This document shows, piece after piece, positions 12,265 through 42,988 of a stretch of DNA of 64,000 nt (position 1 is the first letter of the stretch; every line of letters starts with the position of its first letter). Source of the stretch: Escherichia coli (GTDB lineage: Bacteria; Pseudomonadota; Gammaproteobacteria; Enterobacterales; Enterobacteriaceae); NCBI RefSeq assembly GCF_016026235.1, contig NZ_CP065613.1. One strand, given 5' to 3'. The notes beneath the pieces are model-generated. The model did not search any database and was not told the DNA's origin. It worked only from the letters and a program-made list of their open reading frames with translations. Position numbers and translations under genes: made by a program.

Positions 12265-12285
12265 GCCTCCTGCGGTATGAAGTGG

Positions 12286-12887
<602 letters not shown>

Positions 12888-12918
12888 GACAAATGAGCCC
12901 ATTGGAATAAGTTAGAAA

Positions 12919-13674: not shown

Positions 13675-16600
13675 GATTTCATCAAACCAACGCGCAGTAT
13701 CTGGATGATGGTTTCAACAATACGGTTAACCTGATTCATTCCGGCACCAATTTCCCGGCAGGCCGTAAACAGCAGTGGTAGCAGACTTGTCTTAACGACT
13801 TTCTCAATGTCCTGGGGGTTCAGGGAGTTTTCTGCCACCGCTTTGACGATAATGTTGTCCACTTCAAAAGCCAGCTTCGTCCACTTATCCTGCACCTGAA
13901 CGTCGTTTACCGCAAAAACCTCAGGTAGCTCTTTTTTAAATACACCGTAATACGCCTGAGCATGCTTGTTTACCGCCAGTGCATCCGGGATATCGCTGAG
14001 CTTACGGGCTTCAACCTGTTCTTCAAATTCACGGAACAAAAGGTACTGTTTCAGCGGATGGTCAAACAGTTTTTCAGCCTCTTCGATAGCCATACGCAGG
14101 AGTTTTGAAAATGCCTCCTGAGCATACGGGTCATCACGCAATTCCTGCTCAATCATCTTTGTCACACGGGTTTTAATGATGTCGGTTTCATTGCGGGTTT
14201 TATTGTTGTCCCACTCTTCGGGCTTTTCGCTCTTGCCCATTTTACCGACTTCATACACGCCATCCGGTTCACGAACTTCAACGCCGGTGACATGCTTATC
14301 CAGCAGTTTTTTCACCTGCTCAGCGTAGTCGTCATAATTGACCTGCTCTCCACTTACCTGCATCGCCCACTGGCGCAGGCTGGACATCTGTTTTACGGTT
14401 TCTTTATAGAGATTTCGGTCTTGTTCCGTAAAGCTCTTGTCGGTGAAGAAGGTAGCGGACTGCAGTGCCACTTTCAGGCATCCGGCAAAGGCCGTTAACG
14501 CCTCGAAGAAATCATCACGGGTTTTCTGATGGATATCGACCATCTCTCCGTCACGTTCTTCCATTTTAGGCACCAGTACCGCACGTAACTGCTCAGTATC
14601 ATTTTTGTTTTTAACACCGGCAAATATGGCCCACAGCTGGTTATACAGATGCGGCAGGCGCTTGTATTCAGAGCTCATGGCGCTGTACAGCCCGTCAATA
14701 TCTTTGATATCGTATCCGCCCTGAGTTCGGGAGGCGAGGTCCTGATATTTGCCGATAGTCGTGTCCAGCTCAGCCAGAATACCGCGATAATCAATCAGCA
14801 GACCGAACTTTTTTAGTGGATGCAGTCGGTTCACCCGCGCAATCGCCTGGATAAGGTTGTGGGACTTAAGCGGCTTGTCGATATACAGCACGGTATTCTT
14901 CGGCTCATCAAACCCGGTGAGCAGTTTATCAACGACTATCAGCAATTTGAGCTTCTCATCGGTATCGAAACGACTGATGACATTACGGGTATACACAGAC
15001 TCATCCTGCGTGCCGACATTATCCTTCCACCATTTCGTCACTTCCGGCAGTTTGCTTTCATCCACTTCGGTATTCCCTTCCCGGGTATCCGGCGGGCTGA
15101 TAACTACAGCTGACTCAAACAACCCGGCTTCATCAAGATACTTTTTATATTTGATGGCGGAAATCTTGCTGTCGCAGGCAAGCTGGCCTTTCAGTCCCTC
15201 ATCAATATTCTTCGAGAAGTGCGTGGCGATATCGAGTGCGATCAGACGGATGCGATCATCTGCACTATAAACCTCACCTTTACGGGCATATTTACGCTTC
15301 AGGTCGGCTTTTTGCGCTTCGCTTAACCCATCGGTAATACGATCAAACCAGGCATCTATTGCCCGATCGTTAACCTCAAGGTCGGGAATACGTTCTTCAT
15401 ACAGCAAAGGTGTAACGGCTTTATCTTCTACCGCTCGCTGCATGGTATAAGCGTGGACAATCGGCCCGAATTTATTAGTGGTCTTATCTTCTTTCAGCAA
15501 CGGCGTACCGGTAAATGCCACAAAGGCGGCGTTCGGCAGTGCCAGTTTCATTCGCACATGGTTCTCACCCCCCTGGCTCCGGTGTCCTTCATCAATCAGT
15601 ACGATGATGTCGGGGCTGGTATTGACGCATTCAGGAAGTTTTGTCGCTGAATTAAATTTCTGGATAAGGGTGAAGATAATGCGTTCTTTACCAGAGCCAA
15701 TCTGCTGTGCCAGTTTCTGGCCAGAGGTCGCCATTGCTTTGGCCTTATCATCCTTTCCGGCCAGTTCGCCACCAGAAGCGAAAGTGCCGCTGAGCTGCCC
15801 TTCAAGATCGACACGGTCCGTCACCACCACAATGCGACACTGCTTCAGGCTGTCATGAAGAATCAGCGCCTTACTGAGGAACACCATGGTGTACGATTTA
15901 CCGGAGCCCGTGGTATGCCAGATCACACCACCTTCTCTGCCCCCGTCCGGTCTGCGGGTGCTTATGCGTTCCAGCAGCCTTTTAATCCCGAACACCTGCT
16001 GATAGCGGGCGACAATTTTCCCGGTCTTTTTATCAAACAGGGTGAAAAAGCGGGTCATCTCCAGCAGACGTTCCGGTGAAAGCAGGCTGATGAGCAGCTT
16101 ATCCTGCCCGCTGACGGCCAGTTCACCGGCGGCGATTAACTGTTGGTACCAGTCGAGATCGGCTGAAGGACGATGATCAAACAACGCATGAATTTGTTCA
16201 GTCGATAACTTATGGTTGCGCAGCGCATACATCTGCGCGTAAGTAATATCTTCTTCGCGCCATGCCGCCCAGAATTTCATTGGTGTATGACAGGTACCGT
16301 AGCGCCCGTCATGCCCGTTAATCGACAGTAATATCTGGCTGTAAGCAAACAGCTGCGGGATTTCGTCGTTGAGCTGATTGCGGATACTCTGGGATATCCC
16401 TTCGTCAATGGTTGGCCCTTTCTTGCCGTGACCCGCCGGGCTTTTCGCTTCAATGACGGCCAGCGGGATACCATTCACAAAACACACAATATCCGGTCTG
16501 CGGGTTTCGACACCGCCTGACCGCAATACCGTAAATTCTTCGGTAAAATGGAACTGGTTATTTTCCGGATGTTCCCAGTCGATCAGCGCAATGGTGGGGT

Positions 16601-16958
16601 TCACCTTCTTGCCATCGACAAACTCCGTGACGGCGATACCGTAGAGCAGATGGTTATACATCCGTTCATTGGCTTTGAGCAGCCCTTCATTGAGCGCCGG
16701 AGAACAGACCTGTGATATCAGGTTATCCAGTGCTTTTTCCGATAACTGGCAGGTTTTGCCACCCGCCATAAAGGAACGCTTCGACAGCTCTTCACGCAGA
16801 ACCGGACGCAGCACCACCTCATCCTGTTTATAGCCCCGGTAATCCATAATCTGTTTCGGAGATAAAAACGTCCAGCCGAGGCTGGTCAGTAACGTCAGTG
16901 CCGGAATTTTGGCGCTGTATTCTTCCTGGAATTTTGGCGTGTACGTCTGGTTCATCAT
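13671..16958 (-). CDS. hsdR: Type I restriction enzyme R subunit (HsdR), 1095 aa
   Basis: Walker A 'TGSGKSYTM', DEAD-like 'DEGHRSQ', and a size typical of HsdR; sits in an operon with hsdM and hsdS. Confidence 0.9.
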   Translation of the reverse strand: MMNQTYTPKFQEEYSAKIPALTLLTSLGWTFLSPKQIMDYRGYKQDEVVLRPVLREELSKRSFMAGGKTCQLSEKALDNLISQVCSPALNEGLLKANERMYNHLLYGIAVTEFVDGKKVNPTIALIDWEHPENNQFHFTEEFTVLRSGGVETRRPDIVCFVNGIPLAVIEAKSPAGHGKKGPTIDEGISQSIRNQLNDEIPQLFAYSQILLSINGHDGRYGTCHTPMKFWAAWREEDITYAQMYALRNHKLSTEQIHALFDHRPSADLDWYQQLIAAGELAVSGQDKLLISLLSPERLLEMTRFFTLFDKKTGKIVARYQQVFGIKRLLERISTRRPDGGREGGVIWHTTGSGKSYTMVFLSKALILHDSLKQCRIVVVTDRVDLEGQLSGTFASGGELAGKDDKAKAMATSGQKLAQQIGSGKERIIFTLIQKFNSATKLPECVNTSPDIIVLIDEGHRSQGGENHVRMKLALPNAAFVAFTGTPLLKEDKTTNKFGPIVHAYTMQRAVEDKAVTPLLYEERIPDLEVNDRAIDAWFDRITDGLSEAQKADLKRKYARKGEVYSADDRIRLIALDIATHFSKNIDEGLKGQLACDSKISAIKYKKYLDEAGLFESAVVISPPDTREGNTEVDESKLPEVTKWWKDNVGTQDESVYTRNVISRFDTDEKLKLLIVVDKLLTGFDEPKNTVLYIDKPLKSHNLIQAIARVNRLHPLKKFGLLIDYRGILAELDTTIGKYQDLASRTQGGYDIKDIDGLYSAMSSEYKRLPHLYNQLWAIFAGVKNKNDTEQLRAVLVPKMEERDGEMVDIHQKTRDDFFEALTAFAGCLKVALQSATFFTDKSFTEQDRNLYKETVKQMSSLRQWAMQVSGEQVNYDDYAEQVKKLLDKHVTGVEVREPDGVYEVGKMGKSEKPEEWDNNKTRNETDIIKTRVTKMIEQELRDDPYAQEAFSKLLRMAIEEAEKLFDHPLKQYLLFREFEEQVEARKLSDIPDALAVNKHAQAYYGVFKKELPEVFAVNDVQVQDKWTKLAFEVDNIIVKAVAENSLNPQDIEKVVKTSLLPLLFTACREIGAGMNQVNRIVETIIQILRVGLMKS

Positions 16959-17007
16959 TAATCCTTTTCTTTCTGGCGCTACTCGCTACTGGTCACATGA
17001 AGATTCA

Positions 17008-17691
17008 TCAATGCAGACAGCACTTCTTAAATTTTTTACCGCTGCCACACGGACACGGGTCATTTCGCCCGGGCATGTTTTCTGCCCCCTTCACTGGAAC
17101 AGGCCGGGATGATGCCTCTGACATTCTCACCGACAACCAGTGCTGGTAAAGCGCCAGTGCCGCAGGCTGAATGAGAGTAATACTCTGTTCAAATTGAACA
17201 GGTGACATTTTCTCAACCACTGGGAAGTTCTTTTCGATACCATGAAGGGCTATCGCCTCCAGCGAGGGACGTAAGGCCTCTGGCAAGGCTGACCAGTCAT
17301 CCAGAGACCGGCCTTTCATATACCCGAAACACCACTCTTCGACGATTGTATATGTCTTCCCCTTCACCTCACGTCCATTGAAAATCGGTTCAAACTGTTC
17401 AGGGGCCTCATACAGGCAGCCAGCGATATCGTTCATATGCTGAAAACACAGCCCCACAAAACGCGTCATCTCTTTTTCAGTGGTCCAGTGAGGGTAGTAG
17501 TCACCTCGCCCCCAGATAGCACTAAGCCAGGTATTAGGGGGGATCATATTCGGGCCAGAGACAATCGCTGTCAGAAAGCCATCCAGCTCAGAGAAACAGA
17601 GCACAGAGTCATCATTGCCGTATTTCAGCAACACCTCTTCCAGCCAGTCGATTTCCCGGTCAATCAGCGGCCCGCTTTTCGTCAGTTTCAT
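17008..17691 (-). CDS. YecA-like UPF0149 protein with C-terminal SEC-C zinc motif, 227 aa, embedded between hsdS and hsdR
   Basis: C-terminal '[18 protein letters not shown]' SEC-C motif; overall similarity to the YecA family as I remember it; start overlaps the hsdS stop. Confidence 0.75.
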
Positions 17692-18914
17692 TCGGCAACC
17701 GCCTCATCGACCTTAACACGACGTTTGCCAGTCAATAGCTGTTGCATCAGGGCTTTTTTCTCATCTCTCAGGCAGGCGAGTTTTTTCTCCAGCGTGGAGA
17801 TTTCGGTGTCAGCAGCGGACAGCACGGCGGCGATTTTTTGTTGCTCTTTAATAAATGGGCAAGAAAAGCTTAAAGTTTCAAAATCTTTCTTGGAAAGTTC
17901 TAAAAATGTTGAGCCAGATGATTTTTTGATCATCTCATTTGTGTTCATTTGCAACAAATAATAAATAAATTCGATATTAAACCCTTCATTCGGAATGATG
18001 TTTTTAAAACCTTGATTGGTACAAATTTCCGATGTCGAAATTGCTAAAGCACCAATGGTAGCTCTTGTACATACCATCAAACTACCTTTTGGCAAAAGAA
18101 CAGCTGAGCTATTTAGTAATCCCGCAGGAGTAATTTTTCTACTAGTATTGCTAACGAACCTACCCGTTAATGCAGTAACATCAGTTGGGGTAAGCCATAG
18201 AATATCGCCTTCCCAATACATGGCCATGTTTGTATCAGGTGTTCCACCGGATACAACTTTGCCCATTTGTATTAGTTTAGTAATTTTCCACTCCCCACTA
18301 AACCTCACCCCATTCTCATCCAACAACCGTTTATTCCCGGTAAGCAATTGCTGCATCAGGGCTTTTTTCTGCTGTTGACTGTTGGCGAGAAGGCTTTCCG
18401 TCACCGAAATTGCCTTATCCCAGGCGGTCAGAATTTGAGATATTTTATCTTGTTCACAAATAGCAGGAGTTTTTATGTTTAACGCTCTAATATCAGAAAG
18501 GTTAATTCTAGAAAAGGTAGAACCACCTGCACTTTTTGCTATCTGTCGCTGGACTAAATCTGATTGTAATGTGTAGTAAATAAACCGCCAATCTGCATGG
18601 ATTGCTTTAATTAAGACAGTGTCTTGCCCTAATACAAATGGCTTTTTGGAATCCACATAGCTAACAACACCGACAGACTGGTTACGACTCATAACCAAAT
18701 CACCTTGTTCAACAACACAGTGATCCATCAGAGAGCGATATTCTTCTTCTGTAACTCTTTTTACAGGTGAAATCAGATCTAAGGCTCCCCATTTTATCGT
18801 CCCCGGTGAGACAAGTGGTATTCCCGATTTAACGTACTCAGGAGTCCTGTGTTTGCAATCGATTATCGACGCAACCGATGAGAGTTTCTGAGATGACCAC
18901 CCCTTAGGAATCAT
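17688..18914 (-). CDS. hsdS: Type I restriction-modification specificity subunit (HsdS), two target-recognition domains
   Basis: Two copies of the conserved '[11 protein letters not shown](N/K)(K/R)R' repeat separating two variable domains. Confidence 0.9.
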
Positions 18915-20427
18915 AACCCAACTCCTTCAGATACCCCGCCATCTCCGTTTCCAGCTTCGCCAGTTCCGCCTTCAGTTGCTCGCGTTCGGCGCGTACGGCC
19001 AGCAAATCAATCTCGTCTTCTTCTTCAAAGGTATCGACATAGCGCGGAATATTGAGGTTGTAATCGTTGTCCTGAATTTCCTTCAGGCTGGCAAGATAGG
19101 CGTATTTCTCGACGTTATCGCCATCACGGTAGGTCTTGACGATTTTCTTAATGTTTTCTTCGCTAAGCTGGTTCTGGTTTTTACCTGCCTTGAATTCACG
19201 GCTGGCATCGATAAACAGCACCTTGTCATCAACTTTCTGCTTTTTGAAAATCAGAATCGCAGCCGGAATCCCCGTACCGTAGAACAGTTTTTCCGGCAGA
19301 CCAATTACCGCATCCAGCAAATTTTCGTCGATCAGTTTCTGGCGAATTTTACCTTCGCTGGAGCCACGGAAAAGCACACCGTGTGGCACAACTACGCCCA
19401 TACGGCCAGTTCCCGGTTTCAGGGTTTCGATCATATGCGAGATAAAAGCGTAATCTCCTTTAGTCTTCGGCGGTACACCGCGACGAAAACGGCCAAACTT
19501 ATCGTTCTCGGCCTCGTCATGGCCCCACTTATCGAGGCTGAACGGTGGGTTAGCGGTCACGATATCAAACAGCATCAGGTCGCCATTTTTATCGAGCAGC
19601 TTCGGGTTGCGAATGGTATCGCCCCACTCGATTTTATGGTTGTCTTCCCCGTGCAGGAACATATTCATTTTCGCCAGCGACCACGTAGAACCGATCGCTT
19701 CCTGACCGAACAATGCATAGTTACGACTATCATGCCCGGAGACAATTTTACGCCCACACTTCATCAATAATGAACCGGAACCACAGGCTGGATCGCAGAT
19801 GGTATCACCCGGTTGCGGATCGAGCAGTTCTGCAATCAGGTCCGAAACTTCCGGCGGGGTATAGAACTCCCCGGCTTTCTGCCCACCGCTGGCGGCAAAG
19901 TTTTTGATCAGGTATTCGTAAGCATTGCCGATAACGTCCAGCGTACCGACACGACTCGGCTTCAGGTTGAGATCTTCACCGGCGAAGTCTTCCAGTAGCT
20001 GACGAAGGATGGTGTTTTTCTGTTTTTCTTCGCCAAGACGATCGGTGTTAAACGAAATATCCTGGAACACGCTTTTCCCGGCATCTTTCAGTTTGGTTCC
20101 GTTGGCTTCTTCGATTGCATGCAGAGCCTGATCGATACGCTCACCGTTACCCGGCTCATGGCGGCGTTCGTACAGCGCATAAAAGCTGGCACTTTTTGGC
20201 AGTACAAAACGCTCGTTGGCCATCATCGCTTCAATCAGTTCCGGCACATCGCCATACTGTTCTTTGTATTCGTCATAGTGATCCTGCCAGACATCTGAAA
20301 TGTACTTGAGGAACAGCATGGTAAGGATAAAGTCTTTATAGGTATCAGCACTGATGGTGCCACGGAACGTATCACACGCGGCCCACAGGGCTTTGTTGAT
20401 CGTGTCCTGACTGATTTTGTCGTTCAT
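18904..20427 (-). CDS. hsdM: Type I restriction-modification N6-adenine DNA methyltransferase (HsdM), 507 aa
   Basis: AdoMet motif 'DPACGSGSLL' and catalytic 'NPPF' ('IVTANPPFS'). Confidence 0.9.
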   Translation of the reverse strand: MNDKISQDTINKALWAACDTFRGTISADTYKDFILTMLFLKYISDVWQDHYDEYKEQYGDVPELIEAMMANERFVLPKSASFYALYERRHEPGNGERIDQALHAIEEANGTKLKDAGKSVFQDISFNTDRLGEEKQKNTILRQLLEDFAGEDLNLKPSRVGTLDVIGNAYEYLIKNFAASGGQKAGEFYTPPEVSDLIAELLDPQPGDTICDPACGSGSLLMKCGRKIVSGHDSRNYALFGQEAIGSTWSLAKMNMFLHGEDNHKIEWGDTIRNPKLLDKNGDLMLFDIVTANPPFSLDKWGHDEAENDKFGRFRRGVPPKTKGDYAFISHMIETLKPGTGRMGVVVPHGVLFRGSSEGKIRQKLIDENLLDAVIGLPEKLFYGTGIPAAILIFKKQKVDDKVLFIDASREFKAGKNQNQLSEENIKKIVKTYRDGDNVEKYAYLASLKEIQDNDYNLNIPRYVDTFEEEDEIDLLAVRAEREQLKAELAKLETEMAGYLKELGYDS

Positions 20428-20799
20428 GAATCATCCTGGTCTGAAGAAAAAGCTAGCGATGCAGGGCTTTGCATCTTAAAAATTTCGGTAAATGATACCG
20501 TAAGATGCCTCCCCTGACACGCCAATATCGCAGCATTCAGGTTTGCATCATCCCCGTAATATCGACATGAGACAGACTGACACAACCTGGCTCGTCACTC
20601 GCTAAAAACCAATTATCTTAGTAAGATAGCATCCATATTAGCCATGGTGTAAAACTGCCGTTGGGGTAATGATGATCCATATATCACCCGTTCTGGTGTG
20701 TGAAGCTGACATCATCCATAATCGGCAACGTTGATGCCCTTTGATAGTAATGATGACCGTCAATGTGATTCCCCTGCTGACTGGAGGTCTCCGGATAGT

Positions 20800-21966
20800 A
20801 TGAGTATTACCAACTGCGTTATCGGCCCACTTTACGATGAGCAAATAAAAAAAACACTTATGTATGCTGACCATAAATTCAAGCGGCTAATGAATACACG
20901 AATGTCGTTACTCGAACATTTATCACCCCACTATGACTTATCTTCCATGTTCAGCTATGAGTTGGAGGGAAGAGTTTTTCGGATTAAATTGATCAAGCCT
21001 GAGATTAAATTATCTCGCCAGCAGTTGATCTTCTCCTCACTCTTTTTAGAGCAAGATTTTCTAAAAGAATATAAAAAACACATCTCAAATACTCTACAAA
21101 AAACAATCAAACAGTGCATTAAAAAATACAAACAAAAAATCAAAATCGAGCCTTCTATTTTAGATTACATATCAGCGTCACCCCGCAATACGTCGAGTTA
21201 TGTATTACATGAGATAGTTTCTCAATGTGAACATTGCGATGAAATTCGCAATATTAAAAATGATATATTGCTTGATGAACTAACGTTGAATGGCCGGATC
21301 ACTAACATTTCAAAATACATTAAAAACAGTCAAGATAAAATCGTCGAACATATAGAGTTCTGCACTCATAAACTTGTCAATATAAGTCGTAAGAATCGTC
21401 ACATTTTCAACAGCACCACAATCTCTGGCAGAAAACCCAACATCACTGGTGTTTTACTTTGCCTTTCAGAATTGATAAGCAACCTGCATATTTACCCAAC
21501 TGAAATTAATAATATAAGCAATGCCATAATATTAAGCATTGTATACTCTGTACTTCAACATCTTCAATCCGGAAGAAAAACAGAAAAAACAAAAACCTCT
21601 CCAGCACTGGATTTCATCCCCACCATCATCGCACCTCATGTTTTCTACCTGGCGAAACGCGAAAAATCCTCTCAATATAAATACATTGAAAAAGAATATC
21701 TTCTCGGCCAGTTACTTATATTTTTGATGTATAAAACAGTTTACTACTCGATTCATAACATCAGGGTAAGCCGTAAGCATTTCTATAACGATATAAAACC
21801 AAAATTAATGATACTAAAAAAAGAAAGCTTATTAAGCACCAATTTCATGAAAAATCGAAGAGAGATTAGTGGTGAAGTCTTTGGTGATGTTGGTAGTATT
21901 GAGGCTGATTTTCGAGAAATCAGCACATTGATTCATCGGCGAAAGGCTCTGTTTATTTCCTTTTAA
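20800..21966 (+). CDS. Hypothetical protein, very AT-rich, no recognisable domain (~388 aa from the ATG at 20800; ORF extends to 20731)
   Basis: Long ORF in a strongly AT-rich stretch; Lys/Ile/Asn-rich; SD-like 'ggagg' upstream of the ATG at 20800. Confidence 0.5.
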   Translation: MSITNCVIGPLYDEQIKKTLMYADHKFKRLMNTRMSLLEHLSPHYDLSSMFSYELEGRVFRIKLIKPEIKLSRQQLIFSSLFLEQDFLKEYKKHISNTLQKTIKQCIKKYKQKIKIEPSILDYISASPRNTSSYVLHEIVSQCEHCDEIRNIKNDILLDELTLNGRITNISKYIKNSQDKIVEHIEFCTHKLVNISRKNRHIFNSTTISGRKPNITGVLLCLSELISNLHIYPTEINNISNAIILSIVYSVLQHLQSGRKTEKTKTSPALDFIPTIIAPHVFYLAKREKSSQYKYIEKEYLLGQLLIFLMYKTVYYSIHNIRVSRKHFYNDIKPKLMILKKESLLSTNFMKNRREISGEVFGDVGSIEADFREISTLIHRRKALFISF

Positions 21967-22368: not shown

Positions 22369-23499
22369 ATGTTCGAGAAAATGAAAAACAATGTAACCCG
22401 TATGCCGGGGAATTTAACAAAACTTAATCAATACCAAAAAGACATTGATCACCTGTCTAAACTATTTTCTGAACAGCAATTACTGGAACTAATGACGACT
22501 ACCGAATCCGATCAAATATTGCAAATGAAGCCTGCTGTAGATATTCTTCATGTACTATCTCCATCAGCATCTACTGCTAAGCATATCAATTTTTTTCAGC
22601 ACGTCCCAGTGCTCGAACAATGGTTAAAAAAGGAGTGCACTGCCTTTAATTTACTGGCAGTACATTTCTATTCACAGCAATCCCGTAAAAATGTAATTCC
22701 GAAAGAAATCTGTATGCTACTGGATGCATTTATTGAAACTGAACTTTCATCTGCGGTTAATGGTAATAATAATGCCGAACTCCTTTCTTGTTTTCAAAAC
22801 ACGCTGGATAAAATGTGCAATACACTAACATTTATAGACCACACAGTTACGGAACAATCAGGTCAAGTAGCAATGCTTGATTTCAGCGCAAAAATGCATG
22901 AATATACTGTTGAAATCAGGACCTTTTTGAAGTCTGAATACTGGCTAAACAAACTACCTAAGGATATTAACATTCCAGCCATTGACCTATCCTGGCTTGT
23001 GTTTTGTTACTTTTGCTCTGAATATCTTTTTGTATTTATTCAAACAACGCTCAATACAATGAAGGCAGGAAAAATCATTCGTGATAACTACCTTTATCAT
23101 CCTAAAATGATTGCATTGATCATTTTATCTATGCTGCCTTATGAAGTCATTCATAACGATGGATCACTGAATAAGTTTAAAACGCCTTTAACCAGCCCTG
23201 ATGAGTTCATAATCAAATCTATTTGCATTAAAGGTAAGCAAAACACTACAGGGCATAAAAAAGATATAGAACAATTGCTTCGTAAGACATATATCTATAT
23301 TGCATTACTCTTAAACCCTGAGTGGGCACCATCTTCCAAGGAGTTGATTTCCTTTTTATCAGGAAAGTCCTCAGTGATAAGTGGTTCACTCAACTTCCAG
23401 TCAACCTCCAGTGGTCTGGGTGTTCAAACAAACAATATAACTCTTCTTAAGAATGAGGTTTACTTCGAAAAAATAGCGAACAAGATCATGAAACTGTAG
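22369..23499 (+). CDS. Hypothetical protein, AT-rich, no recognisable domain, 376 aa
   Basis: Long ORF in the same AT-rich stretch; 'gaggataaaatt' SD precedes the ATG. Confidence 0.5.
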   Translation: MFEKMKNNVTRMPGNLTKLNQYQKDIDHLSKLFSEQQLLELMTTTESDQILQMKPAVDILHVLSPSASTAKHINFFQHVPVLEQWLKKECTAFNLLAVHFYSQQSRKNVIPKEICMLLDAFIETELSSAVNGNNNAELLSCFQNTLDKMCNTLTFIDHTVTEQSGQVAMLDFSAKMHEYTVEIRTFLKSEYWLNKLPKDINIPAIDLSWLVFCYFCSEYLFVFIQTTLNTMKAGKIIRDNYLYHPKMIALIILSMLPYEVIHNDGSLNKFKTPLTSPDEFIIKSICIKGKQNTTGHKKDIEQLLRKTYIYIALLLNPEWAPSSKELISFLSGKSSVISGSLNFQSTSSGLGVQTNNITLLKNEVYFEKIANKIMKL

Positions 23500-23642: not shown

Positions 23643-24779
23643 ATGCCTATTCTGGATCTGCGTTTCAGCAACAAATCAATTCACCAACTTCCACATCCCC
23701 TCACGGGTTGTCAGGAATACCGTGATATTCACTGCCAAAACCTGCGTGCTCTGGTGTATCCCAATCGGATCACGCTGGCCTTTCGTGCCACTATAAACAA
23801 TCAGCGTATATATGAAACCCTGGGTCAGTTCCCTCAGCTCTGCGTTGAGGATGCCCGTCAGCATGTGATGAAACTGCTTGCTGATAAAAATCGTCTTGCG
23901 GTTCAGTCCCGTCGATTCACTGTGGAACAGGCCATCAATGACCTGTGGCTACCGGATTTGCAGTTGTATAAAAAGAGTCCTCAGTCAGAGTTGTCAAAAC
24001 TCAACCTCTACGTTCGCCCGTTCTGGGGCAAGCGGCAACTTCGCGACATCACGGCAGGAGAACTAGAACAATATGCTGCTGGCTTACGGGAAAAATTACG
24101 TCCGTCAACAGTAAACCGTATCCTCGCAATATTGTCCAAAATATGCTCTCTGGCAGTACGTGCTGGATGGATCACACATTCCCCGATGTCACATGTCCGC
24201 TATCTGAAAGAAAATAACATTCGCTATCGCACACTGTCAGCGACAGAAATCCCGCGCTTTATTGACGCGGCAACAGCGCTGCAAACACCGGCAGCTGATT
24301 CTATATTGCTTGCTCTTTATACGGGGATGCGTATTGGTGAGGTATGTACCCTGAAATGGGAGTACTGGCACCCGGATATGCATCAACTCATACTGCCTGA
24401 TACAAAGTCCGGACACCCTTTCACCTGCCCACTTGCACCTCCAGCCATTGCAGTTGTCCAGTGCCAGCAGGACCTGATGCTCAGCAAAACTTACATTTTT
24501 CCACAACTAACCGACAATGCCCGCCCTCTGGCATATCCGCGTGCAACCTTTGCCCGTATTTGCCGGGATGCCGACATTGATAACCTGCGGATGCATGACC
24601 TGCGCCGTACCTTTGCCACCCGGGTACTACAGGCGACCGGGGATATTGCAATCGCTTCCCATCTGCTAAATCACCATTCACTCACGGCGACCCGTCGCTA
24701 CGCTTTTCACAATGCAGCGACATCACACGCAGTGGTTTCTCAGGTCATAGAAAGTTATGACACAAAAATGAACCTATGA
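23643..24779 (+). CDS. Tyrosine recombinase / phage-type integrase (second integrase of the island), 378 aa
   Basis: Catalytic-domain pattern 'LYTGMRIGEV...MHDLRRTFATR...LNHHSLTATRRYA' (R..H-x-x-R..Y); SD 'aggaga' before the ATG. Confidence 0.8.
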   Translation: MPILDLRFSNKSIHQLPHPLTGCQEYRDIHCQNLRALVYPNRITLAFRATINNQRIYETLGQFPQLCVEDARQHVMKLLADKNRLAVQSRRFTVEQAINDLWLPDLQLYKKSPQSELSKLNLYVRPFWGKRQLRDITAGELEQYAAGLREKLRPSTVNRILAILSKICSLAVRAGWITHSPMSHVRYLKENNIRYRTLSATEIPRFIDAATALQTPAADSILLALYTGMRIGEVCTLKWEYWHPDMHQLILPDTKSGHPFTCPLAPPAIAVVQCQQDLMLSKTYIFPQLTDNARPLAYPRATFARICRDADIDNLRMHDLRRTFATRVLQATGDIAIASHLLNHHSLTATRRYAFHNAATSHAVVSQVIESYDTKMNL

Positions 24780-24921: not shown

Positions 24922-25050
24922 ATGTATTTAACCATTAAGCAGTTCGCAGAAAGATTTAATCTTTCTGCATCCACGGTTGCGTCAGATATATCGCGCAACC
25001 CCGGAAAACTCCCGCCCTTCATCAGAATTGGGCGGGCTATACGATTCTCT
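24922..25050 (+). pseudogene. AlpA-like helix-turn-helix regulator/excisionase gene truncated by IS1
   Basis: 'MYLTIKQFAERFNLSASTVASDISRNPGKLPPFIRIGRAIRF' resembles AlpA-family phage regulators; reading frame runs into the IS1 terminal repeat at 25051. Confidence 0.55.
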
Positions 25051-25065
25051 GGTAATGACTCCAAC

Positions 25066-25569
25066 TTACTGATAGTGTTTTATGTTCAGATAATGCCCGA
25101 TGACCTTGTCATGCAGCTCCACCGATTTTGAGAACGACAGTGACTTCCGTCCCAGCCTTGCCAGATGTTGTCTCAGATTCAGATTATGTCGCTCAATGCG
25201 CTGAGTGTAACGCTTGCTGATAACGTGCAGCTTTCCCTTCAGGCGTGATTCATACAGCGGCCAGCCATCCGTCATCCATACCACGACCTCAAAGGCCGAC
25301 AGCAGGCTCAGAAGACGCTCCAGTGTGGCCAGAGTGCGTTCACCGAAGACGTGCGCCACAACCGTCCTCCGTATCCTGTCATACGCGTAAAACAGCCAGC
25401 GCTGACGTGATTTAGCACCGACGTAGCCCCACTGTTCGTCCATTTCAGCGCAGACAATCACATCACTGCCCGGTTGTATGCGCGAGGTTACCGACTGCGG
25501 CCTGAGTTTTTTAAGTGACGTAAAACCGTGTTGAGGCCAACGCCCATAATGCGTGCACTGGCGCGACAT
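25066..25569 (-). CDS. insB: IS1 InsB frame (variant isoform)
   Basis: -1 frame overlapping insA within the IS1. Confidence 0.85.
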
Positions 25570-25763
25570 CCGACGCCATTCATGGCCATATCAATGATTT
25601 TCTGGTGCGTACCGGGCTGAGAGGCGGTGTAAGTGAACTGTAGTTGCCATGTTTTACGGCAATGAGAGCAGAGATAGCGCTGATGTCCGGCAGTGCTTTT
25701 GCCGTTACGCACCACGCCTTCAGTAGCGGAGCAGGAAGGACATCTGATGGAAATGGAAGCCAC
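25488..25763 (-). CDS. insA: IS1 InsA (variant isoform)
   Basis: '[37 protein letters not shown]...'. Confidence 0.9.
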
Positions 25764-25936
25764 GCAAGCACCTTAAAATCACCATCATACACTAAATCAG
25801 TAAGTTGGCAGCATTACCCATCTTCAAATGGGAGTACCAGCTCTGTTTTCAACAGACTCATTACTGACTCCGGAAGAAGGAGCGACGGCAGGTCTTGCCA
25901 GTTCGAGACAAATTTCATTGAATAATCCTCATAAAC

Positions 25937-26286: not shown

Positions 26287-27486
26287 TCACATCTGCTTCG
26301 TAGCCGCAGTATTCAGAAGCAGGTCAGTCACTCCCTGCCCTGTCTGACGCATACGTTCCGGTGTTAATTTCGCGTAACGTTCTGTACTCTGAATACTGGC
26401 ATGCGCCAGTTGGGCTTTAACGTCATACAGGCTGAATTGACCACTCGAAACCAGTAAAGAGGCAACAGAATGACGTGTGGTGTGAAAACAGACTTCATTC
26501 TTGTCTATACCGCACTGTGCCAGTATTTTTTCATATGCCCATCGGGGTTCCGATATCGGTTTTCCATTATCCTTAATGGCGAACAGATACGGATTACTGC
26601 CAACTCGTGGGATAGCATCAATAATCGATAATGCGGCATCGCTTAGATATACCGTCCGACTGCGACCATTTTTTGTATAAGGAATGAACAGAGTACGATT
26701 GGCCCGGTCGATATGTTCATGCCTGACATTAAGCATTTCTGATTTGCGTGTACCGGTTAACAACAACATGGCTATCAATCCCCCGGCAGCTTTGTTGGGA
26801 TATTGGGTAGCAGCGTCAAGAATGCGCCTGATCTCATCAGCATCAAAAAAGCGCGTCCGCTGATTATTCTCTTTCAGTAAAGGGATCTTATCGGCTTCAT
26901 TCTTTTCCAGCACATCCTGTCGCAACGCATAACGCCCCATCGTTTTCAGAATAGCAAGGGCTCTGTTACAGGTAGACGGCGCATATTGCTGCCCGTGAAT
27001 ACGCCCCTCCAGCATGTCAAACAGCACCTGTTGTATCTCTCTGGCCCTGAGATCGCAGTAACGTATCTTTCCCAGACGAGGTTCAATGTATTGCGTGAAA
27101 CGCTGAACATCCTTATCCCAGGACTTTTTATGGCGTTTGATGAACGGAACATAGGTCTGGTGAAAAAACTCACTAAGTGTTGGCATCGCACGATAATTAT
27201 CGCGTTCTGCTTTAGGGTCATTTCCCAGTGCAATCGCCTCCTTATGACGGCGAGCTATCTGGCGAGCTGTCCCCACATCAATTTCAGGGAATCTGCCAAT
27301 ACTGATACTTTTTTTGGTACCGTGGAATGTGTAGCGCAGGAGGAAACGTTTGTTACCCGTTCGACCTGAGAGACATTTGAGGCCAATAACTTCGGTATCA
27401 GATACCTCAAGCTCTGTAGATCTGGTATCTGTGTTTGCCGGAAGGGCTTTGATGGATGAATTGGTGAATCGGAAGGATTTTTGCAT
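26287..27486 (-). CDS. int: P4-type tyrosine integrase (tRNA-proximal integrase of the island); probable start at the Met at 27486, ORF extends to 27516
   Basis: 'LLLTGTRKSEMLNVRHEHI' and 'CFHTTRHSVASLL...STERYAKL' catalytic motifs; N-terminal 'FTNSSIKALP' arm-binding region; 'gaggat' SD before the ATG at 27486. Confidence 0.85.
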   Translation of the reverse strand: MQKSFRFTNSSIKALPANTDTRSTELEVSDTEVIGLKCLSGRTGNKRFLLRYTFHGTKKSISIGRFPEIDVGTARQIARRHKEAIALGNDPKAERDNYRAMPTLSEFFHQTYVPFIKRHKKSWDKDVQRFTQYIEPRLGKIRYCDLRAREIQQVLFDMLEGRIHGQQYAPSTCNRALAILKTMGRYALRQDVLEKNEADKIPLLKENNQRTRFFDADEIRRILDAATQYPNKAAGGLIAMLLLTGTRKSEMLNVRHEHIDRANRTLFIPYTKNGRSRTVYLSDAALSIIDAIPRVGSNPYLFAIKDNGKPISEPRWAYEKILAQCGIDKNEVCFHTTRHSVASLLVSSGQFSLYDVKAQLAHASIQSTERYAKLTPERMRQTGQGVTDLLLNTAATKQM

Positions 27487-27566
27487 ATTTATCCTCATGT
27501 ATCTGATTGATATCATGGAGATAATATATATCTGAAGGTGTTTTTATTACGGGGCAGGATTGAAGA

Positions 27567-28307
27567 ATGGAAAAGCTATTAGACGCGTACAAACGGATAT
27601 TACAGGAAGTTGACGCCCAGTCATTTAACCTGAATGAGGATAAATACTCAGGCGTCTTTTTACCCGTGCCCTTTGAAGAATACTGGCACTCACCGGTAAA
27701 AATCATACTGGTTGGACGTGAAACCGCTGGCTGGAATACTCTGAATGGTAAGAACACGATATCACGGGTGCTGGGACTTATACCTGACGTCACCATCGGG
27801 CAGGTGGTTGGAGAGGCTGTAGATCGTTACAGGAATCATCTTCCGGTACAAAATGATGGCACCACGAACCTCAAATCACGTAGCCGCTTCACGCAGTATC
27901 ATTTCCGGCTGGCCCGGGAGCTTAATATTCCTCCTCAGGCTATCGTGTATGCCAATCTACTGGCGTGGGATTACGACGGACTGACCCCTCTCAATCGCCC
28001 TCAAAATGAAGTGCAGGAAGTTATATTAGCCTCGCTGAAGCTGCTGGCGGTACAAATTAAACACCTTGAGCCTGATTTCATCATCTTTGCATCCGGAGCC
28101 CGGAGAACAGACTACATCATAAAACAGGTGCTTACTGAGCTGGGCGGCTATGAGACTTCTGCAGTCATTCCGGGGAAGCTATGGGAGTTCAAAACAGGTA
28201 ATGCAATCTGTTTCAGAATTGCCCATCCACGGGCTATGCGCGGACACCAGAAGTACAGAGATGAGGTGATTGCACGAATTAAGCAACTTTGTACTCAGGG
28301 TGGCTAG
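27567..28307 (+). CDS. Hypothetical protein, 246 aa; weak resemblance to a uracil-DNA-glycosylase-like fold
   Basis: ORF between the integrase and the tRNA; 'KIILVGRETAGW' and 'IAHPRAMRGH' loosely resemble UDG motifs A and B. Confidence 0.5.
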   Translation: MEKLLDAYKRILQEVDAQSFNLNEDKYSGVFLPVPFEEYWHSPVKIILVGRETAGWNTLNGKNTISRVLGLIPDVTIGQVVGEAVDRYRNHLPVQNDGTTNLKSRSRFTQYHFRLARELNIPPQAIVYANLLAWDYDGLTPLNRPQNEVQEVILASLKLLAVQIKHLEPDFIIFASGARRTDYIIKQVLTELGGYETSAVIPGKLWEFKTGNAICFRIAHPRAMRGHQKYRDEVIARIKQLCTQGG

Positions 28308-28546: not shown

Positions 28547-28633
28547 TGGTACCCGGAGCGGGACTTGAACCCGCACAGCGCGAACGCCGAGGGATTTTAA
28601 ATCCCTTGTGTCTACCGATTCCACCATCCGGGC
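28547..28633 (-). tRNA. leuZ: tRNA-Leu (anticodon UAA), 87 nt
   Basis: Minus-strand sequence gcccggatggtggaatcggtagacacaagggattTAAaatccc...gggtacca; long variable arm and CCA end. Confidence 0.95.
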
Positions 28634-28645
28634 TCGGGAAGAAAA

Positions 28646-28719
28646 TGGAGGCGCGTTCCGGAGTCGAACCGGACTAGACGGATTTGCAATCCGCTACATA
28701 ACCGCTTTGTTAACGCGCC
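28646..28719 (-). tRNA. cysT: tRNA-Cys (anticodon GCA), 74 nt
   Basis: Minus-strand sequence ggcgcgttaacaaagcggttatgtagcggattGCAaatccg...cgcctcca. Confidence 0.95.
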
Positions 28720-28773
28720 AAATTCTTCAGGCCTTTCAGCCAGACATCCGCTTGACGCCGATGTCTTTTAAAC

Positions 28774-28849
<76 letters not shown>

Positions 28850-37203: not shown

Positions 37204-37755
37204 TTAATATATATCAGAAGCAGGCAGGCTGGTGGATTTCTGCACAAGCCCGGTACACGTTTGACGCTGATAGTGTTGATACTTCCGTAACGCGATGCGG
37301 TAATTGTTGGTGCTGGTAGTGGGCAGCCACGGGGCGAGGATTTCATCAAGGAAACCGTCCTGCAGCTGTTCGAGGGAAATATTTTGCTCGTGAAGATGAT
37401 TACCCAAACGGCGCAGACGAACGACATATTCACGCACCGTACCTGGGCTCATTTCAGTTTGCTCAAAAAGAAATTGCTTAAAGCCGATAATATCGAAAAA
37501 ATCACTCTGTGTTTTGCAATGTAAATCACCGCAGAATCGGCACAATGCCGCCCATGATTTTTGTTCCACTTGCCAGCCATTTTCATCAAGCAGCGTGTCC
37601 AGGCGGGAAATCTCGATTTTATTCACTATTTTGCCGTCGCGAACGAGGGTAATGCGATCGAGTAATTTACGGCAATGCGCGCAATGGGTCTGGCTGTGTT
37701 TAAAGTCTTTAAGATAGCGGCTTAATGGCCGTCTTTTCAGGTGCTGCACCATCAT
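37204..37755 (-). CDS. fliZ: Flagellar regulatory protein FliZ (start trimmed to 'MMVQHLK')
   Basis: Position immediately downstream of fliA; 183 aa. Confidence 0.9.
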   Translation of the reverse strand: MMVQHLKRRPLSRYLKDFKHSQTHCAHCRKLLDRITLVRDGKIVNKIEISRLDTLLDENGWQVEQKSWAALCRFCGDLHCKTQSDFFDIIGFKQFLFEQTEMSPGTVREYVVRLRRLGNHLHEQNISLEQLQDGFLDEILAPWLPTTSTNNYRIALRKYQHYQRQTCTGLVQKSTSLPASDIY

Positions 37756-37800: not shown

Positions 37801-38520
37801 TTATAGCTTACCCAGTTTAGTGCGTAACCGTTTAATGGCCTGGCTGTGTAACTGACTAACCCGCGATTCCCCGACCTCCAGCACCGCACCAATCTCTTTG
37901 AGATTCAGCTCTTCCTGGTAATAGAGGGTTAATACCAGTTTTTCGCGCTCCGGCAACGTTTCGATAGCTTCCATCACCCGCTGGCGCAGATTACTGTCCA
38001 GCAGTTGTTGTAGCGGGTTTTCTCGCTGATGATCATCAGTAACCAGTTCGATACTATCGCCGTGCTCTTCGCGCCACTCATCGTAGGAGAAGAGCTGGCT
38101 GTTATTGGTGTCGAGCAACATTTGGCGATAGTCGGCAATATCGATCCCTAAACGTTCCGCTACCTCAGTTTCCGTGGCGTTGCGGCCAAGTTCCTGCTCC
38201 AGTTGCCCTATTGCCTGTGCCACTTCACGCGCGTTGCGTCGCACGCTGCGCGGCACCCAGTCACGGCTGCGAAGTTCATCCAGCATAGCGCCACGGATAC
38301 GCTGCACTGCGTAAGTTGTAAATGCCGTTCCTTGTAGGGCGTCATAGCGTTCGACGGCATTAAGTAACCCAATGCCGCCCGCCTGTAGCAGATCGTCAAG
38401 TTCCACGCTCGCGGGCAGTCGAACCTGCAGGCGCAATGCTTCGTGACGCACCAGCGGGACATAACGCTGCCACAGCGAGTGTTTATCCATTACACCTTCA
38501 GCGGTATAGAGTGAATTCAC
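37801..38520 (-). CDS. fliA: Flagellar sigma factor sigma-28
   Basis: 239 aa; sigma-70 regions 2, 3 and 4 including 'LVLTLYYQEELNLKEIGAVLEVGESRVSQLHSQA'. Confidence 0.95.
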   Translation of the reverse strand: MNSLYTAEGVMDKHSLWQRYVPLVRHEALRLQVRLPASVELDDLLQAGGIGLLNAVERYDALQGTAFTTYAVQRIRGAMLDELRSRDWVPRSVRRNAREVAQAIGQLEQELGRNATETEVAERLGIDIADYRQMLLDTNNSQLFSYDEWREEHGDSIELVTDDHQRENPLQQLLDSNLRQRVMEAIETLPEREKLVLTLYYQEELNLKEIGAVLEVGESRVSQLHSQAIKRLRTKLGKL

Positions 38521-38839: not shown

Positions 38840-40516
38840 TTAACCCTGCAGCAGAGACAGAACCTGCTGCGGTACCTGGTTAGCTTTTGCCAGCACGGAG
38901 TTACCGGCCTGCTGGATGATCTGCGCTTTCGACATGTTGGACACTTCGGTCGCATAGTCGGCGTCCTGAATACGGGACTGCGCTTCAGACAGGTTGGTAG
39001 TGGTGTTGTTCAGGTTGGTGACCGCAGAATCCAGACGGTTTTGAACCGCACCGAGGGAGGAGCGGAATTTGTCGATGGAGCTGATGGCTTCGTCCAGAGC
39101 TTTCAGAGGGTCAGTGGTTGCTTCAGACTTGGTAGTTGCATCTTTAGTGATGGAACCATCAGCAGCTTTATAGACAGTAGAACCTTCACCGTCAGAAACT
39201 TTACCATCAGCAAAACCGTAGTAGGTCGTGGTAACGGTTTCATCATCTTCAGTCGTCAGTGCGCCAGTGGTATCTTTATACACATTTACGCCACCTGTCT
39301 GAACTGCGTCTGAGGTTACGGCATAAGCCTTACCGCCTACGTTGGCTGTATAGGAACCATTAATTAAGGTTGATGCCATTGCATCAGCAGAAATAGACGC
39401 GCCTTTAAAGTCAACAGTGCCAGCACCTTCGTCGAATTTAGCTGTCATGCCGCTATCGAAAGTGATCGTTGCATCCTGAGCACCAGCAGCAAACAATTTA
39501 TCTACAGTTGCTTTATCAGCAGAAGTCAGATTCGCGGTATTTTTGGTCAAGTTACCGGTGTCATCGAGGTACAGAGCATCGCCATTGGTATCGGTGATGG
39601 AGCCATCTTTGGCGATGTTAACTTCTTGCTCGGTACCACCAATATTAATTTTACCGGTGTTAGATGCACCTAAGTAGCCTTTCAGTGCCGTCGCGGCATC
39701 CGTGCTGACAACGCCAATAGCATCAAAGGTGTAAGACTTATTCGCTGCATTGTAGGTATAAGTCGAGGCATCAGCAGCGACGCCTAAGCCAGTATCAGTG
39801 CCCGCATAGGTAATGCTATCGCCAGCCGCCGCTTTGCCCAATACATCAGCCGCTGTCGCTGTGTCGAACTTGGTAACGGTGTCTTTCGTATAAGTGATTT
39901 TGCCATTAGCATCGGCTGCGCTTGCCGTGAAACCAGCATCAGTAAGATCTTTGCCAGTCGCCTTGGCATTATCAACAGAGCCAGCACCATTCACGTTAAA
40001 CCCTGTCAGATTCAGCGTATCAGAGTCAATTTTCTTCAGATCAATAGTAATTGTTTCACCATCATTTGCACCCACCTGAATTTTCATTGAACCGTCTTTA
40101 GACAGCACGTTCACGCCGTTGAACTGGGTCTGACCAGATACGCGGTCAATTTCGTCAAGACGGGATTTGATTTCGTCCTGGATGGAGTCCAGGTCAGAAT
40201 CGGAGTTAGTCCCTGTAGTGGCCTGAACCGTCAGTTCACGAATACGCTGTAAGTTGTTGTTGATTTCGGACAGCGCGCCTTCAGTGGTCTGTGCAACGGA
40301 GATACCGTCGTTGGCGTTACGTGCAGCCTGAGTCAGGCCTTTAATGTTAGAAGTAAAACGGTTAGCAATCGCCTGACCTGCGGCGTCATCCTTCGCGCTG
40401 TTAATACGCAAGCCAGAAGACAGACGCTCGATAGAACTCGACAGCGCAGACTGGTTCTTGTTGATATTATTTTGAGTGATCAGCGAGAGGCTGTTGGTAT
40501 TAATGACTTGTGCCAT
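38840..40516 (-). CDS. fliC: Flagellin (H antigen), 558 aa, conserved termini with a long variable central region
   Basis: N-terminal '[54 protein letters not shown]'; C-terminal '...[24 protein letters not shown]'. Confidence 0.95.
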
Positions 40517-40590: not shown

Positions 40591-40619
40591 TGTTATCGTC
40601 TGTCGTAAAACAACCTTTA
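40591..40619 (-). promoter_or_regulatory. Sigma-28 (class 3) promoter of fliC
   Basis: Minus strand TAAAGGTT-N11-CGATAACA, close to the sigma-28 consensus TAAAGTTT-N11-GCCGATAA. Confidence 0.7.
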
Positions 40620-40781: not shown

Positions 40782-42188
40782 ATGGCAAGTATTTCATCGC
40801 TGGGAGTCGGGTCAGGTCTGGATTTAAGTTCAATCCTCGATAGCCTCACCGCCGCGCAAAAAGCGACGCTAACCCCTATTTCAAATCAGCAATCGTCGTT
40901 TACCGCTAAACTTAGCGCCTACGGTACGCTGAAAAGCGCGCTGACGACTTTCCAGACCGCCAATACTGCATTGTCTAAAGCCGATCTTTTTTCCGCCACC
41001 AGCACCACCAGCAGCACCACCGCGTTCAGTGCCACCACCGCGGGTAACGCCATCGCCGGGAAATACACCATCAGCGTCACCCATCTGGCGCAGGCGCAAA
41101 CCCTGACCACGCGCACCACCAGAGACGATACGAAAACGGCGATCGCCACCAGCGACAGCAAACTCACCATTCAACAAGGCGGCGACAAAGATCCGATTAC
41201 CATTGATATCAGCGCGGCTAACTCATCATTAAGCGGGATCCGTGATGCCATCAACAACGCAAAAGCGGGTGTTAGCGCGAGCATCATTAACGTGGGTAAC
41301 GGTGAATATCGTCTGTCAGTCACATCAAATGACACCGGCCTTGATAATGCGATGACACTCTCGGTCAGCGGTGATGATGCGCTACAAAGTTTTATGGGCT
41401 ATGACGCCAGTGCCAGCAGCAACGGTATGGAGGTCTCGGTCGCCGCCCAGAATGCGCAGCTGACGGTCAACAACGTCGCCATTGAGAACAGCAGCAACAC
41501 CATCAGCGACGCGCTGGAAAACATCACCCTGAACCTGAACGATGTCACCACGGGCAACCAGACGCTAACCATCACTCAGGACACCTCCAAAGCGCAAACG
41601 GCGATTAAAGACTGGGTGAATGCCTATAACTCGCTAATAGATACCTTCAGCAGCCTGACCAAATACACCGCCGTAGATGCGGGAGCTGATAGCCAAAGCT
41701 CTAGCAATGGCGCACTGCTCGGCGACTCCACGCTGCGGACGATTCAGACACAGTTGAAATCGATGCTGAGTAATACCGTTAGTTCTTCCAACTATAAAAC
41801 GCTGGCGCAGATTGGTATCACGACCGATCCCAGCGATGGCAAACTGAAACTGGATGCCGACAAACTCACCGCTGCATTGAAAAAAGATGCCAGCGGCGTA
41901 GGTGCATTGATTGTTGGCGATGGTAAAAAAACCGGCATCACAACCACCATCGGCAGCAACCTGACCAGTTGGCTTTCGACAACGGGCATTATTAAAGCCG
42001 CTACCGATGGCGTTAGTAAGACCCTGAACAAGTTAACTAAAGACTACAACGCCGCCAGCGATCGCATTGATGCGCAGGTCGCTCGCTACAAAGAACAATT
42101 TACCCAACTGGACGTTTTAATGACCTCGTTAAACAGCACCAGCAGCTACTTAACGCAGCAGTTCGAAAACAACAGTAATTCCAAGTAA
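40782..42188 (+). CDS. fliD: Flagellar filament cap protein
   Basis: 468 aa; position divergent from fliC. Confidence 0.95.
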   Translation: MASISSLGVGSGLDLSSILDSLTAAQKATLTPISNQQSSFTAKLSAYGTLKSALTTFQTANTALSKADLFSATSTTSSTTAFSATTAGNAIAGKYTISVTHLAQAQTLTTRTTRDDTKTAIATSDSKLTIQQGGDKDPITIDISAANSSLSGIRDAINNAKAGVSASIINVGNGEYRLSVTSNDTGLDNAMTLSVSGDDALQSFMGYDASASSNGMEVSVAAQNAQLTVNNVAIENSSNTISDALENITLNLNDVTTGNQTLTITQDTSKAQTAIKDWVNAYNSLIDTFSSLTKYTAVDAGADSQSSSNGALLGDSTLRTIQTQLKSMLSNTVSSSNYKTLAQIGITTDPSDGKLKLDADKLTAALKKDASGVGALIVGDGKKTGITTTIGSNLTSWLSTTGIIKAATDGVSKTLNKLTKDYNAASDRIDAQVARYKEQFTQLDVLMTSLNSTSSYLTQQFENNSNSK

Positions 42189-42212
42189 TTATTATTCATC
42201 GGGAGACAGGTC

Positions 42213-42623
42213 ATGTACGCGGCAAAAGGCACCCAGGCCTATGCACAAATTGGCGTCGAAAGCGCCGTAATGAGCGCCAGCCAGCAGCAGCTGGTCACCA
42301 TGCTATTTGATGGAGTGCTGAGCGCACTGGTTAGAGCGCGCCTGTTTATGCAGGACAACAATCAGCAAGGCAAAGGCGTCTCTTTGTCAAAAGCGATCAA
42401 CATCATTGAGAACGGGCTGCGGGTGAGTCTTGATGAAGAGAGCAAAGACGAACTAACCCAAAACTTGATTGCTCTTTATAGCTATATGGTCAGGCGTTTG
42501 CTGCAAGCCAATTTACGCAACGATGTCTCCGCAGTCGAAGAAGTGGAAGCATTAATGCGTAACATTGCCGATGCCTGGAAAGAGTCTTTACTCTCCCCTT
42601 CTTTGATTCAGGACCCAGTCTGA
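42213..42623 (+). CDS. fliS: Flagellin-specific chaperone
   Basis: 136 aa; conserved operon position. Confidence 0.95.
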
Positions 42624-42988
42624 TGAACCATGCACCGCATTTGTATTTCGCCTGGCAACAACTCGTCGAAAAAAGCCAGCTCATGTTACGCCTGGCAACA
42701 GAAGAACAGTGGGACGAACTCATCGCCAGCGAAATGGCGTATGTGAATGCGGTGCAGGAGATTGCACACCTGACTGAAGAGGTTGAGCCGTCCACCACAA
42801 TGCAGGAGCAACTCCGCCCGATGCTGCGCCTGATTCTCGATAACGAAAGCAAGGTGAAGCAGTTATTACAGATTCGGATGGATGAACTGGCGAAACTGGT
42901 CGGTCAGTCATCGGTACAAAAATCGGTGTTAAGTGCCTATGGCGATCAGGGCGGCTTTGTGCTGGCTCCGCAGGATAACCTCTTTTGA
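42623..42988 (+). CDS. fliT: Flagellar export chaperone / FlhDC anti-activator
   Basis: 121 aa; start overlaps the fliS stop. Confidence 0.95.

Follow-up and report, generated by a model that had tools for sequence, protein, structure and literature searches.

Organization of the fliC locus

The window, by which we mean the entire 64,000-nucleotide stretch of Escherichia coli DNA analyzed here (contig NZ_CP065613.1), carries fliC at positions 38840 to 40516 of the minus strand as an open reading frame with an ATG start and 558 codons followed by a stop. This is an ordinary, intact flagellin gene. The gene, its internal divisions, its regulatory elements and the adjacent flagellar genes are arranged as follows.

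37204-37755: fliZ, which follows fliA
37801..38520, minus strand: fliA (sigma-28, which directs transcription of fliC), 239 aa, matching K-12 FliA from end to end at 100% identity
38643..38836, minus strand: fliC 3' UTR, with REP-like palindromes, a FliX sRNA counterpart and an intrinsic terminator
38840..40516, minus strand: fliC coding sequence, stop codon at 38840-38842 (ORF, Pfam and NCBIfam)
38843..39103, minus strand: conserved C-terminal D1/D0 helices, residues 472-558 (Flagellin_C and alignment)
39104..40003, minus strand: variable outer domains, the H-antigen part, residues 172-471 (alignment, H26 family, homologues of H6/H7 D2-D3-D4)
39533..39571, minus strand: counterpart of the D4 dimer-interface motif, residues 316-328 (alignment to 7SN4 and 7SN7)
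40004..40516, minus strand: conserved N-terminal D0/D1 helices, residues 1-171 (alignment, Flagellin_N, AlphaFold2 helices)
40593..40619, minus strand: fliC class 3 sigma-28 (FliA) promoter, with TAAA at 40619-40616, a 15-nt spacer and GACGATAA at 40600-40593
40782..42988, plus strand: fliD (filament cap), fliS (flagellin export chaperone) and fliT, divergent from fliC

Both helical domains of the product score above the curated thresholds that define the FliC/FljB family. Flagellin_N (PF00669) covers residues 5-140 with an E-value of 1.4e-46 and 158.5 bits against a cut-off of 26.6, and Flagellin_C (PF00700) covers residues 471-556 with 110.6 bits against a cut-off of 23. The Pfam FliC model (PF12445) matches residues 343-462, and the NCBIfam model NF005953, “FliC/FljB family flagellin,” returns 742 bits, with its cut-off at 619. 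A flagellin of 558 aa had been proposed at this position from the letters alone, and the ORF, Pfam and NCBIfam results bear this out.

The same sequence-only reading took the termini to be the conserved D0/D1 segments and described the central ~300 codons as rich in Thr, Ala, Gly and Asp and longer than in the K-12 flagellin (~498 aa), all of which agrees with the measurements. In the multiple alignment, residues 1-171 are 99% identical to H26, 97-98% to H6 and H7 and 93% to K-12, and residues 472-558 are 97-98% identical to H26, H6, H7 and K-12. Across the central 300 residues (172-471), alanine (16.7%), threonine (16.0%), glycine (12.0%) and aspartate (11.0%) make up 55.7% of the sequence. 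K-12 FliC has 498 aa (1497 bp), a difference of 60 residues. The complete protein has a mass of 57.6 kDa and a pI of 4.4, and is without Cys, Trp and His. No internal duplication was found in its central region, and no second flagellin gene was found in the window.

By analogy with other flagellins, the product of this chromosomal gene would polymerize into the flagellar filament, with the D0/D1 terminal helices forming the core and also carrying the signals for export, for binding to FliS and for recognition by TLR5, and with the central ~300 residues exposed at the surface as the outer domains that would define the H antigen. The TLR5-recognition stretch is presumably LQRIRELT, at residues 89-96 (40229-40252), a role that we take over from Salmonella FliC.

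The surroundings of the gene are also those of fliC. Synteny and sequence place it with fliA and fliD-fliS-fliT to either side and a sigma-28 class 3 promoter upstream, and its neighbors are the canonical ones, with fliA, fliZ, tcyJ and dcyD downstream and fliD, fliS, fliT and amyA on the divergent side. The promoter was identified from the known sigma-28 consensus, TAAA-N15-GCCGATAA, and the stretch of 284 nt ahead of fliC matches K-12 at all but two positions, both of them outside the promoter elements. At the other end of the gene, the 3' UTR region aligns to the K-12 region annotated as the fliX ncRNA, with no match to an Rfam family found for the FliX region, and a terminator-like stem-loop at 38664-38650 is followed by a T-run. 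Beyond the fliC terminator, the promoter element GCCGATAA is conserved upstream of fliA. Transcription of fliC would thus be expected to follow the normal class 3 route, from the FliA/sigma-28 promoter through a FliX-like 3' UTR to the intrinsic terminator.

Probable enteroinvasive lineage and condition of the flagellar genes

Positions 28483-59232 of the window are 99.92% identical to strain FDAARGOS_943 (NZ_CP065615.1). When fliC is set aside, the 21.7 kb backbone is 99.9% identical to this strain, with the next best of >5,000 genomes at 97.9%. The window strain is therefore closely related to FDAARGOS_943 but different from it, as the two differ in their insertion elements and prophage content (described below). 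FDAARGOS_943 contains the O112ac wzx and wzy genes, many Shigella-type IS elements and a 155-kb IncFII plasmid with sepA, virK, capU, phoC and an IpaH-type NEL fragment; the O112ac genes, the IS elements and the invasion-type plasmid together are hallmarks of enteroinvasive E. coli (EIEC). SerotypeFinder types ipaH-positive E. coli of EIEC cluster C6 as O112ac:H26, O143:H26 and O167:H26 (ShigEiFinder, PMC8767346), and molecular serotyping assigns EIEC 4608-58 to O143:H26 (PMC4319576). Classical serology scores EIEC of groups O112ac, O143 and O167 as H- (PMC5156508, PMC5723341, PMC8767346).

None of the window genes fliA, fliZ, fliD, fliS, fliT and fliE through fliR is truncated or gapped relative to K-12, and their identities are 92.5-100%; FliA and FliG are 100% identical, and fliD, fliS and fliT are 99.2-99.6% identical. 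The hook-length control protein FliK (54082-55209) is the most divergent of the fli proteins at 92.5%, the others falling at 97-100%. No block to fliC expression was found within the window, which does not extend to flhDC, flg, flh, mot or che. Failure of flagellin export through a fliR gene split by IS1 was considered and is ruled out for this strain, as fliR is intact in the window and split in FDAARGOS_943 only.

Comparison of window positions 37801-59375 with NZ_CP065615.1 revealed 11 differences in flagellar genes, eight of which are non-synonymous or indels: fliA R19C, fliD A156T, a 3-nt deletion in fliS, fliF H69Q and G307S, fliG K273E, fliH L208P and fliI T34A. Where a change could be polarized, the window carries the K-12 state. 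This pattern in FDAARGOS_943 fits decay after IS1 broke fliR, and suggests that the flagellar regulon has been decaying in that strain and not in the window strain.

These observations bear on the strongest alternative, in which fliC is intact but cryptic: as with Shigella and classical EIEC, damage to other parts of the flagellar regulon would under standard conditions leave the strain non-motile, with no flagellin made and an H- serotype. The H- listings of its presumed relatives, the split fliR and the excess of protein-altering changes in the sister strain, and the abundance of IS elements in the window itself all lend weight to this explanation. Against it, fliR is intact in the window, and each fli gene there, together with fliA and the fliC promoter, is full length and K-12-like. 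In addition, a review (PMC5156508) citing Andrade 2002 notes that in 0.2% agar EIEC described as non-motile can build working flagella. A cryptic fliC is a serious contender, falling just short of an even chance.

Assignment to the H26 family

The whole fliC gene was matched at 100% identity by a single one of 5,426 complete E. coli genomes, that of FDAARGOS_943, where it encodes WP_038339395.1. The next group of alleles, at 94.6-94.8% nucleotide identity, is that of a 557-codon gene (WP_025670328.1) common to NCTC9080 and the O80:H26 strain EC-107; over the full gene, the window and the O80:H26 allele are 94.8% identical in nucleotides and 96.2% in amino acids. With the central 921 nt as query against the same 5,426 genomes, one record matched at 100% and 36 at ~93.2%, all of the H26 group, and all remaining genomes matched at no more than 69% or only in part. 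The 94.8% identity extends over 100% of the gene and exceeds the SerotypeFinder defaults, with minima of 85% for identity and 60% for length; the assignment made here is to the nearest labeled family among the 5,426 complete genomes, beyond which a rarer named H type still closer to the window allele may exist. On this basis, the comparisons support a fliC genotype of H26 in a variant form. A protein-database search with the central region alone, which gave distant relatives such as Atlantibacter hermannii at 64% and an E. coli partial flagellin at 51% among the matches listed, its own cluster being absent from them, was left out of the typing. H46, once considered as a close relative of H26, proved to be wrong in that role: it is 1,719 bp long and resembles H28 (PMC4441469).

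Between the window allele and the H26 allele there are 21 differences in 558 positions, one of them a single-residue insertion; they span residues 171 to 480, and 18 fall in the 300-residue central region. The dS between the two genes is 0.16 with a dN/dS of 0.13 (0.18 in the center), and by these rates the split is an old one maintained under purifying selection, rather than the product of a few recent mutations. Flanking genes diverge from those of H26 strains by about 2-3%. Public relatives of 558 aa differ from the window allele by 0-10 residues and from classical H26 by 16-23, and so form a discrete group. WP_038339395.1 itself occurs on at least 26 public contigs, and no serotype labels were found on the contigs encoding this exact protein. 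Taken with the published typing of the lineage, we infer that the window allele is the “H26” of EIEC cluster C6.

The central domain had also been read as identifying the H serotype of the source strain. This stands for the H genotype, which falls in the H26 family, but not necessarily for the antigen expressed: because the lineage (EIEC O112ac/O143/O167) is classically non-motile and H-, the gene defines a molecular H type only. A molecular H type of this kind is useful for typing and epidemiology, as such strains are usually scored H- serologically. The H26-family genotype, together with the identity of the backbone to an O112ac strain, points to the enteroinvasive E. coli lineage.

By its sequence similarity, the 558-aa variant may also react with H26 antiserum. 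The opposing possibility is that the 558-aa group is a serologically distinct H antigen, either a new H type or a sub-factor of H26, that has been lumped as H26. The 21 amino acid differences from O80:H26, of which the central surface region holds 18, the discreteness of the allele group and the age of the split (dS 0.16) are compatible with a separate antigen, and two types as close as H1 and H12, with 97.5% nucleotide identity and only 7 amino acid differences, count as distinct (PMC4753304). However, a divergence of 5% is within the range known within a single type, as fliC of H28-agglutinating strains differs by 8% (PMC4441469), and the central dN/dS of 0.18 is without sign of diversifying selection. 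H26 is also absent from the list of recognized cross-reacting H pairs (PMC4753304), and published in-silico typing calls such strains H26 (PMC8767346). A distinct antigen is accordingly regarded as unlikely, and H26 in a variant form remains the preferred assignment.

Outer domains related to sheath-forming flagellins

Among solved structures, the window FliC matched the H6 flagellin (7SQJ/7SN7, E about 1e-186) and the H7 flagellin (7SN4, E 2e-156) over its full length in a single stretch, whereas K-12-like and Salmonella flagellins matched at the ends only. The central 300 aa alone matched 7SN7/7SQJ from end to end (E 1.8e-28). Amino acid identity over residues 172-471 in the multiple alignment is 94% to the O80:H26 allele, 41% to H6 and 28% to H7.

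Outer-domain-sheath flagellins are known as the H7/H6/Achromobacter type. In H6 and H7 flagellins, the outer domains D2-D4 dimerize or tetramerize into an outer-domain sheath, which stabilizes an intermediate waveform and prolongs tumbles, and mutation of N319 and N323 in the D4 interface motif of H7 disrupts the sheath and impairs motility (PMC8931119). The window protein has homologues of all three domains (D2-D3-D4) and retains both asparagines of the D4 motif, with N322 and N326 matching H7 N319 and N323; the H7 motif is YVDDAGNLTTNNA and the H6 motif is YMDATGNLTKNNA. N322 is nearly invariant in the flagellin alignment.

An AlphaFold2 monomer model, built from a 17-sequence alignment, had a pLDDT of about 88-94 over residues ~180-465 and helices at residues 7-40, 45-101 and 106-129. 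Its best Foldseek matches were the sheath-type filaments 7SN4, 9N59, 7SN7 and 7SQD (E 1e-30 to 1e-44), with Salmonella FliC weaker at 1e-23 or worse. Global TM-scores against the sheath-type filaments were low (0.35-0.42) because domain orientation differs between a monomer model and a filament, and the fold ranking is used here as supporting evidence only. Given the homology of the outer domains and the conservation of the D4 motif, the window flagellin would build a filament with an outer-domain sheath held by D4-D4 dimers, and sheath formation is probable.

A compound reading would join several of these elements, with the EIEC 558-aa group being a distinct H antigen merged into H26, having an H6/H7-like sheath and being expressed by “non-motile” EIEC only in particular settings, soft agar of low viscosity being one. 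We consider this combination quite improbable, more so than the distinct antigen by itself.

Exclusion of other gene identities

Identity as a K-12-type (H48) flagellin, or as a length variant of one, is favored by the conserved termini (93% N-terminal, 97% C-terminal) and by nothing else, and can be set aside with near certainty, as BLASTP aligns the ends alone, the center has 66 identical residues among 215 alignable positions with 110 gap columns in the multiple alignment, and the K-12-like PDB chain 8CXM is matched at two stretches, both terminal, and nowhere else. The prior description of a non-K-12 central domain, for which a match to the H48 allele had been named as the refuting outcome, is upheld by these alignments. 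A phase-variable gene for an alternative flagellin, such as flkA, fllA, flmA or flnA, in place of fliC, which has only the non-K-12 flagellin itself to recommend it, is equally remote and was rejected on synteny: the gene sits between fliA and fliD as in K-12 with near-identical intergenic regions, it is the sole flagellin in the window with no adjacent recombinase or repressor gene, and it occupies a single place in the genome of FDAARGOS_943.

In total, we are highly confident that the locus is the chromosomal fliC gene in a discrete 558-aa, H26-family allele of the EIEC lineage, with predicted H6/H7-like outer domains and predicted normal class 3 transcription. The allele is already known, the exact protein being public and covered by published in-silico typing, and nothing about it is biologically new. 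It is of mild interest for its sheath-forming structural class and for the apparently intact fli set in the window compared with the loss in the sister strain.

Other features of the window

Several features outside the fli genes were recorded, among them a defense island at 8775-20427, for which gene names follow those of the corresponding FDAARGOS_943 region (99.9% identical), and a set of mobile-element genes.

8775-12264: two DUF262 genes, defense island
12512-12888: IS1 remnant, defense island
12919-13674: M48 peptidase, defense island
13671-16958: hsdR, type I restriction-modification system, defense island
within 13671-20427: YecA-family gene, type I restriction-modification system
17688-18914: hsdS, type I restriction-modification system
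18904-20427: hsdM, type I restriction-modification system
577-1773, 23643-24779, 25050-25824 and 26287-27516: mobile-element genes (an IS110-family transposase, two tyrosine integrases and a full IS1)
60919-61005, minus strand: DsrA sRNA, 102.5 bits with Rfam, above the gathering score

The mobile-element genes stand just left of a tRNA cluster at 28550-28849, and because they adjoin it the island seems to have integrated at this cluster. At the junction at 28483, the defense island directly abuts the tRNA genes in the window; the prophage of FDAARGOS_943 lies at 637-666 kb of NZ_CP065615.1, beside a tRNA Gly-Cys-Leu cluster. No Pfam match was found for the ORFs at 20731-21966, 22369-23499 and 27567-28307.

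An IS1 at about 4342-5110 interrupts the anti-phage gene hhe (DUF4011), leaving ORFs at 5088-8600 and 2076-4355 (minus strand). The gene is intact in FDAARGOS_943 (1,911 aa), where IS1 copies are found in fliR, araF and ftnB instead, and since the sites differ between the strains, the IS1 insertions are independent. The SOS-response-associated peptidase gene yedK (46731-47399) has a premature stop at 47331-47333, codon 201 of 222, which is Trp in both K-12 and FDAARGOS_943. DsrA is flanked by rcsA, dsrB, yodD and yedP as in K-12, and an IS1 present between dsrB and rcsA in FDAARGOS_943 is absent from the window.

Comparison with known flagellins

The closest known system is that of FDAARGOS_943, in which fliC is 100% identical to the window in both DNA and protein, at the same locus and in the same lineage. 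FDAARGOS_943 differs in having an IS1 inside fliR and a P2-like prophage of ~30 kb by the tRNA cluster, neither of which is in the window, and the window carries IS1 copies at sites other than those of FDAARGOS_943.

The O80:H26 flagellin (NCTC9080 and EC-107; WP_025670328.1, 557 aa) is, within the 5,426 genomes, of the one family whose central region resembles that of the window, and its D0/D1 termini are 98-99% identical. It is set apart by the 21 differing residues of the window protein, the 1-aa insertion included, and by the synonymous divergence given above.

K-12 FliC (H48, 498 aa; PDB 8CXM) is alike in gene, locus, promoter, 3' UTR and D0/D1 core, but its central domain is unrelated and shorter, without the three-domain, sheath-type outer region. 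The outer region of the window protein is instead homologous over its whole length to those of H6 (EPEC O127:H6) and H7 (EHEC O157:H7), with both D4 asparagines kept, although the outer-domain identities of 41% and 28% would make it a different H antigen from either. H6 and H7 themselves pack differently, as a tetramer with a seam and as a dimer, respectively.
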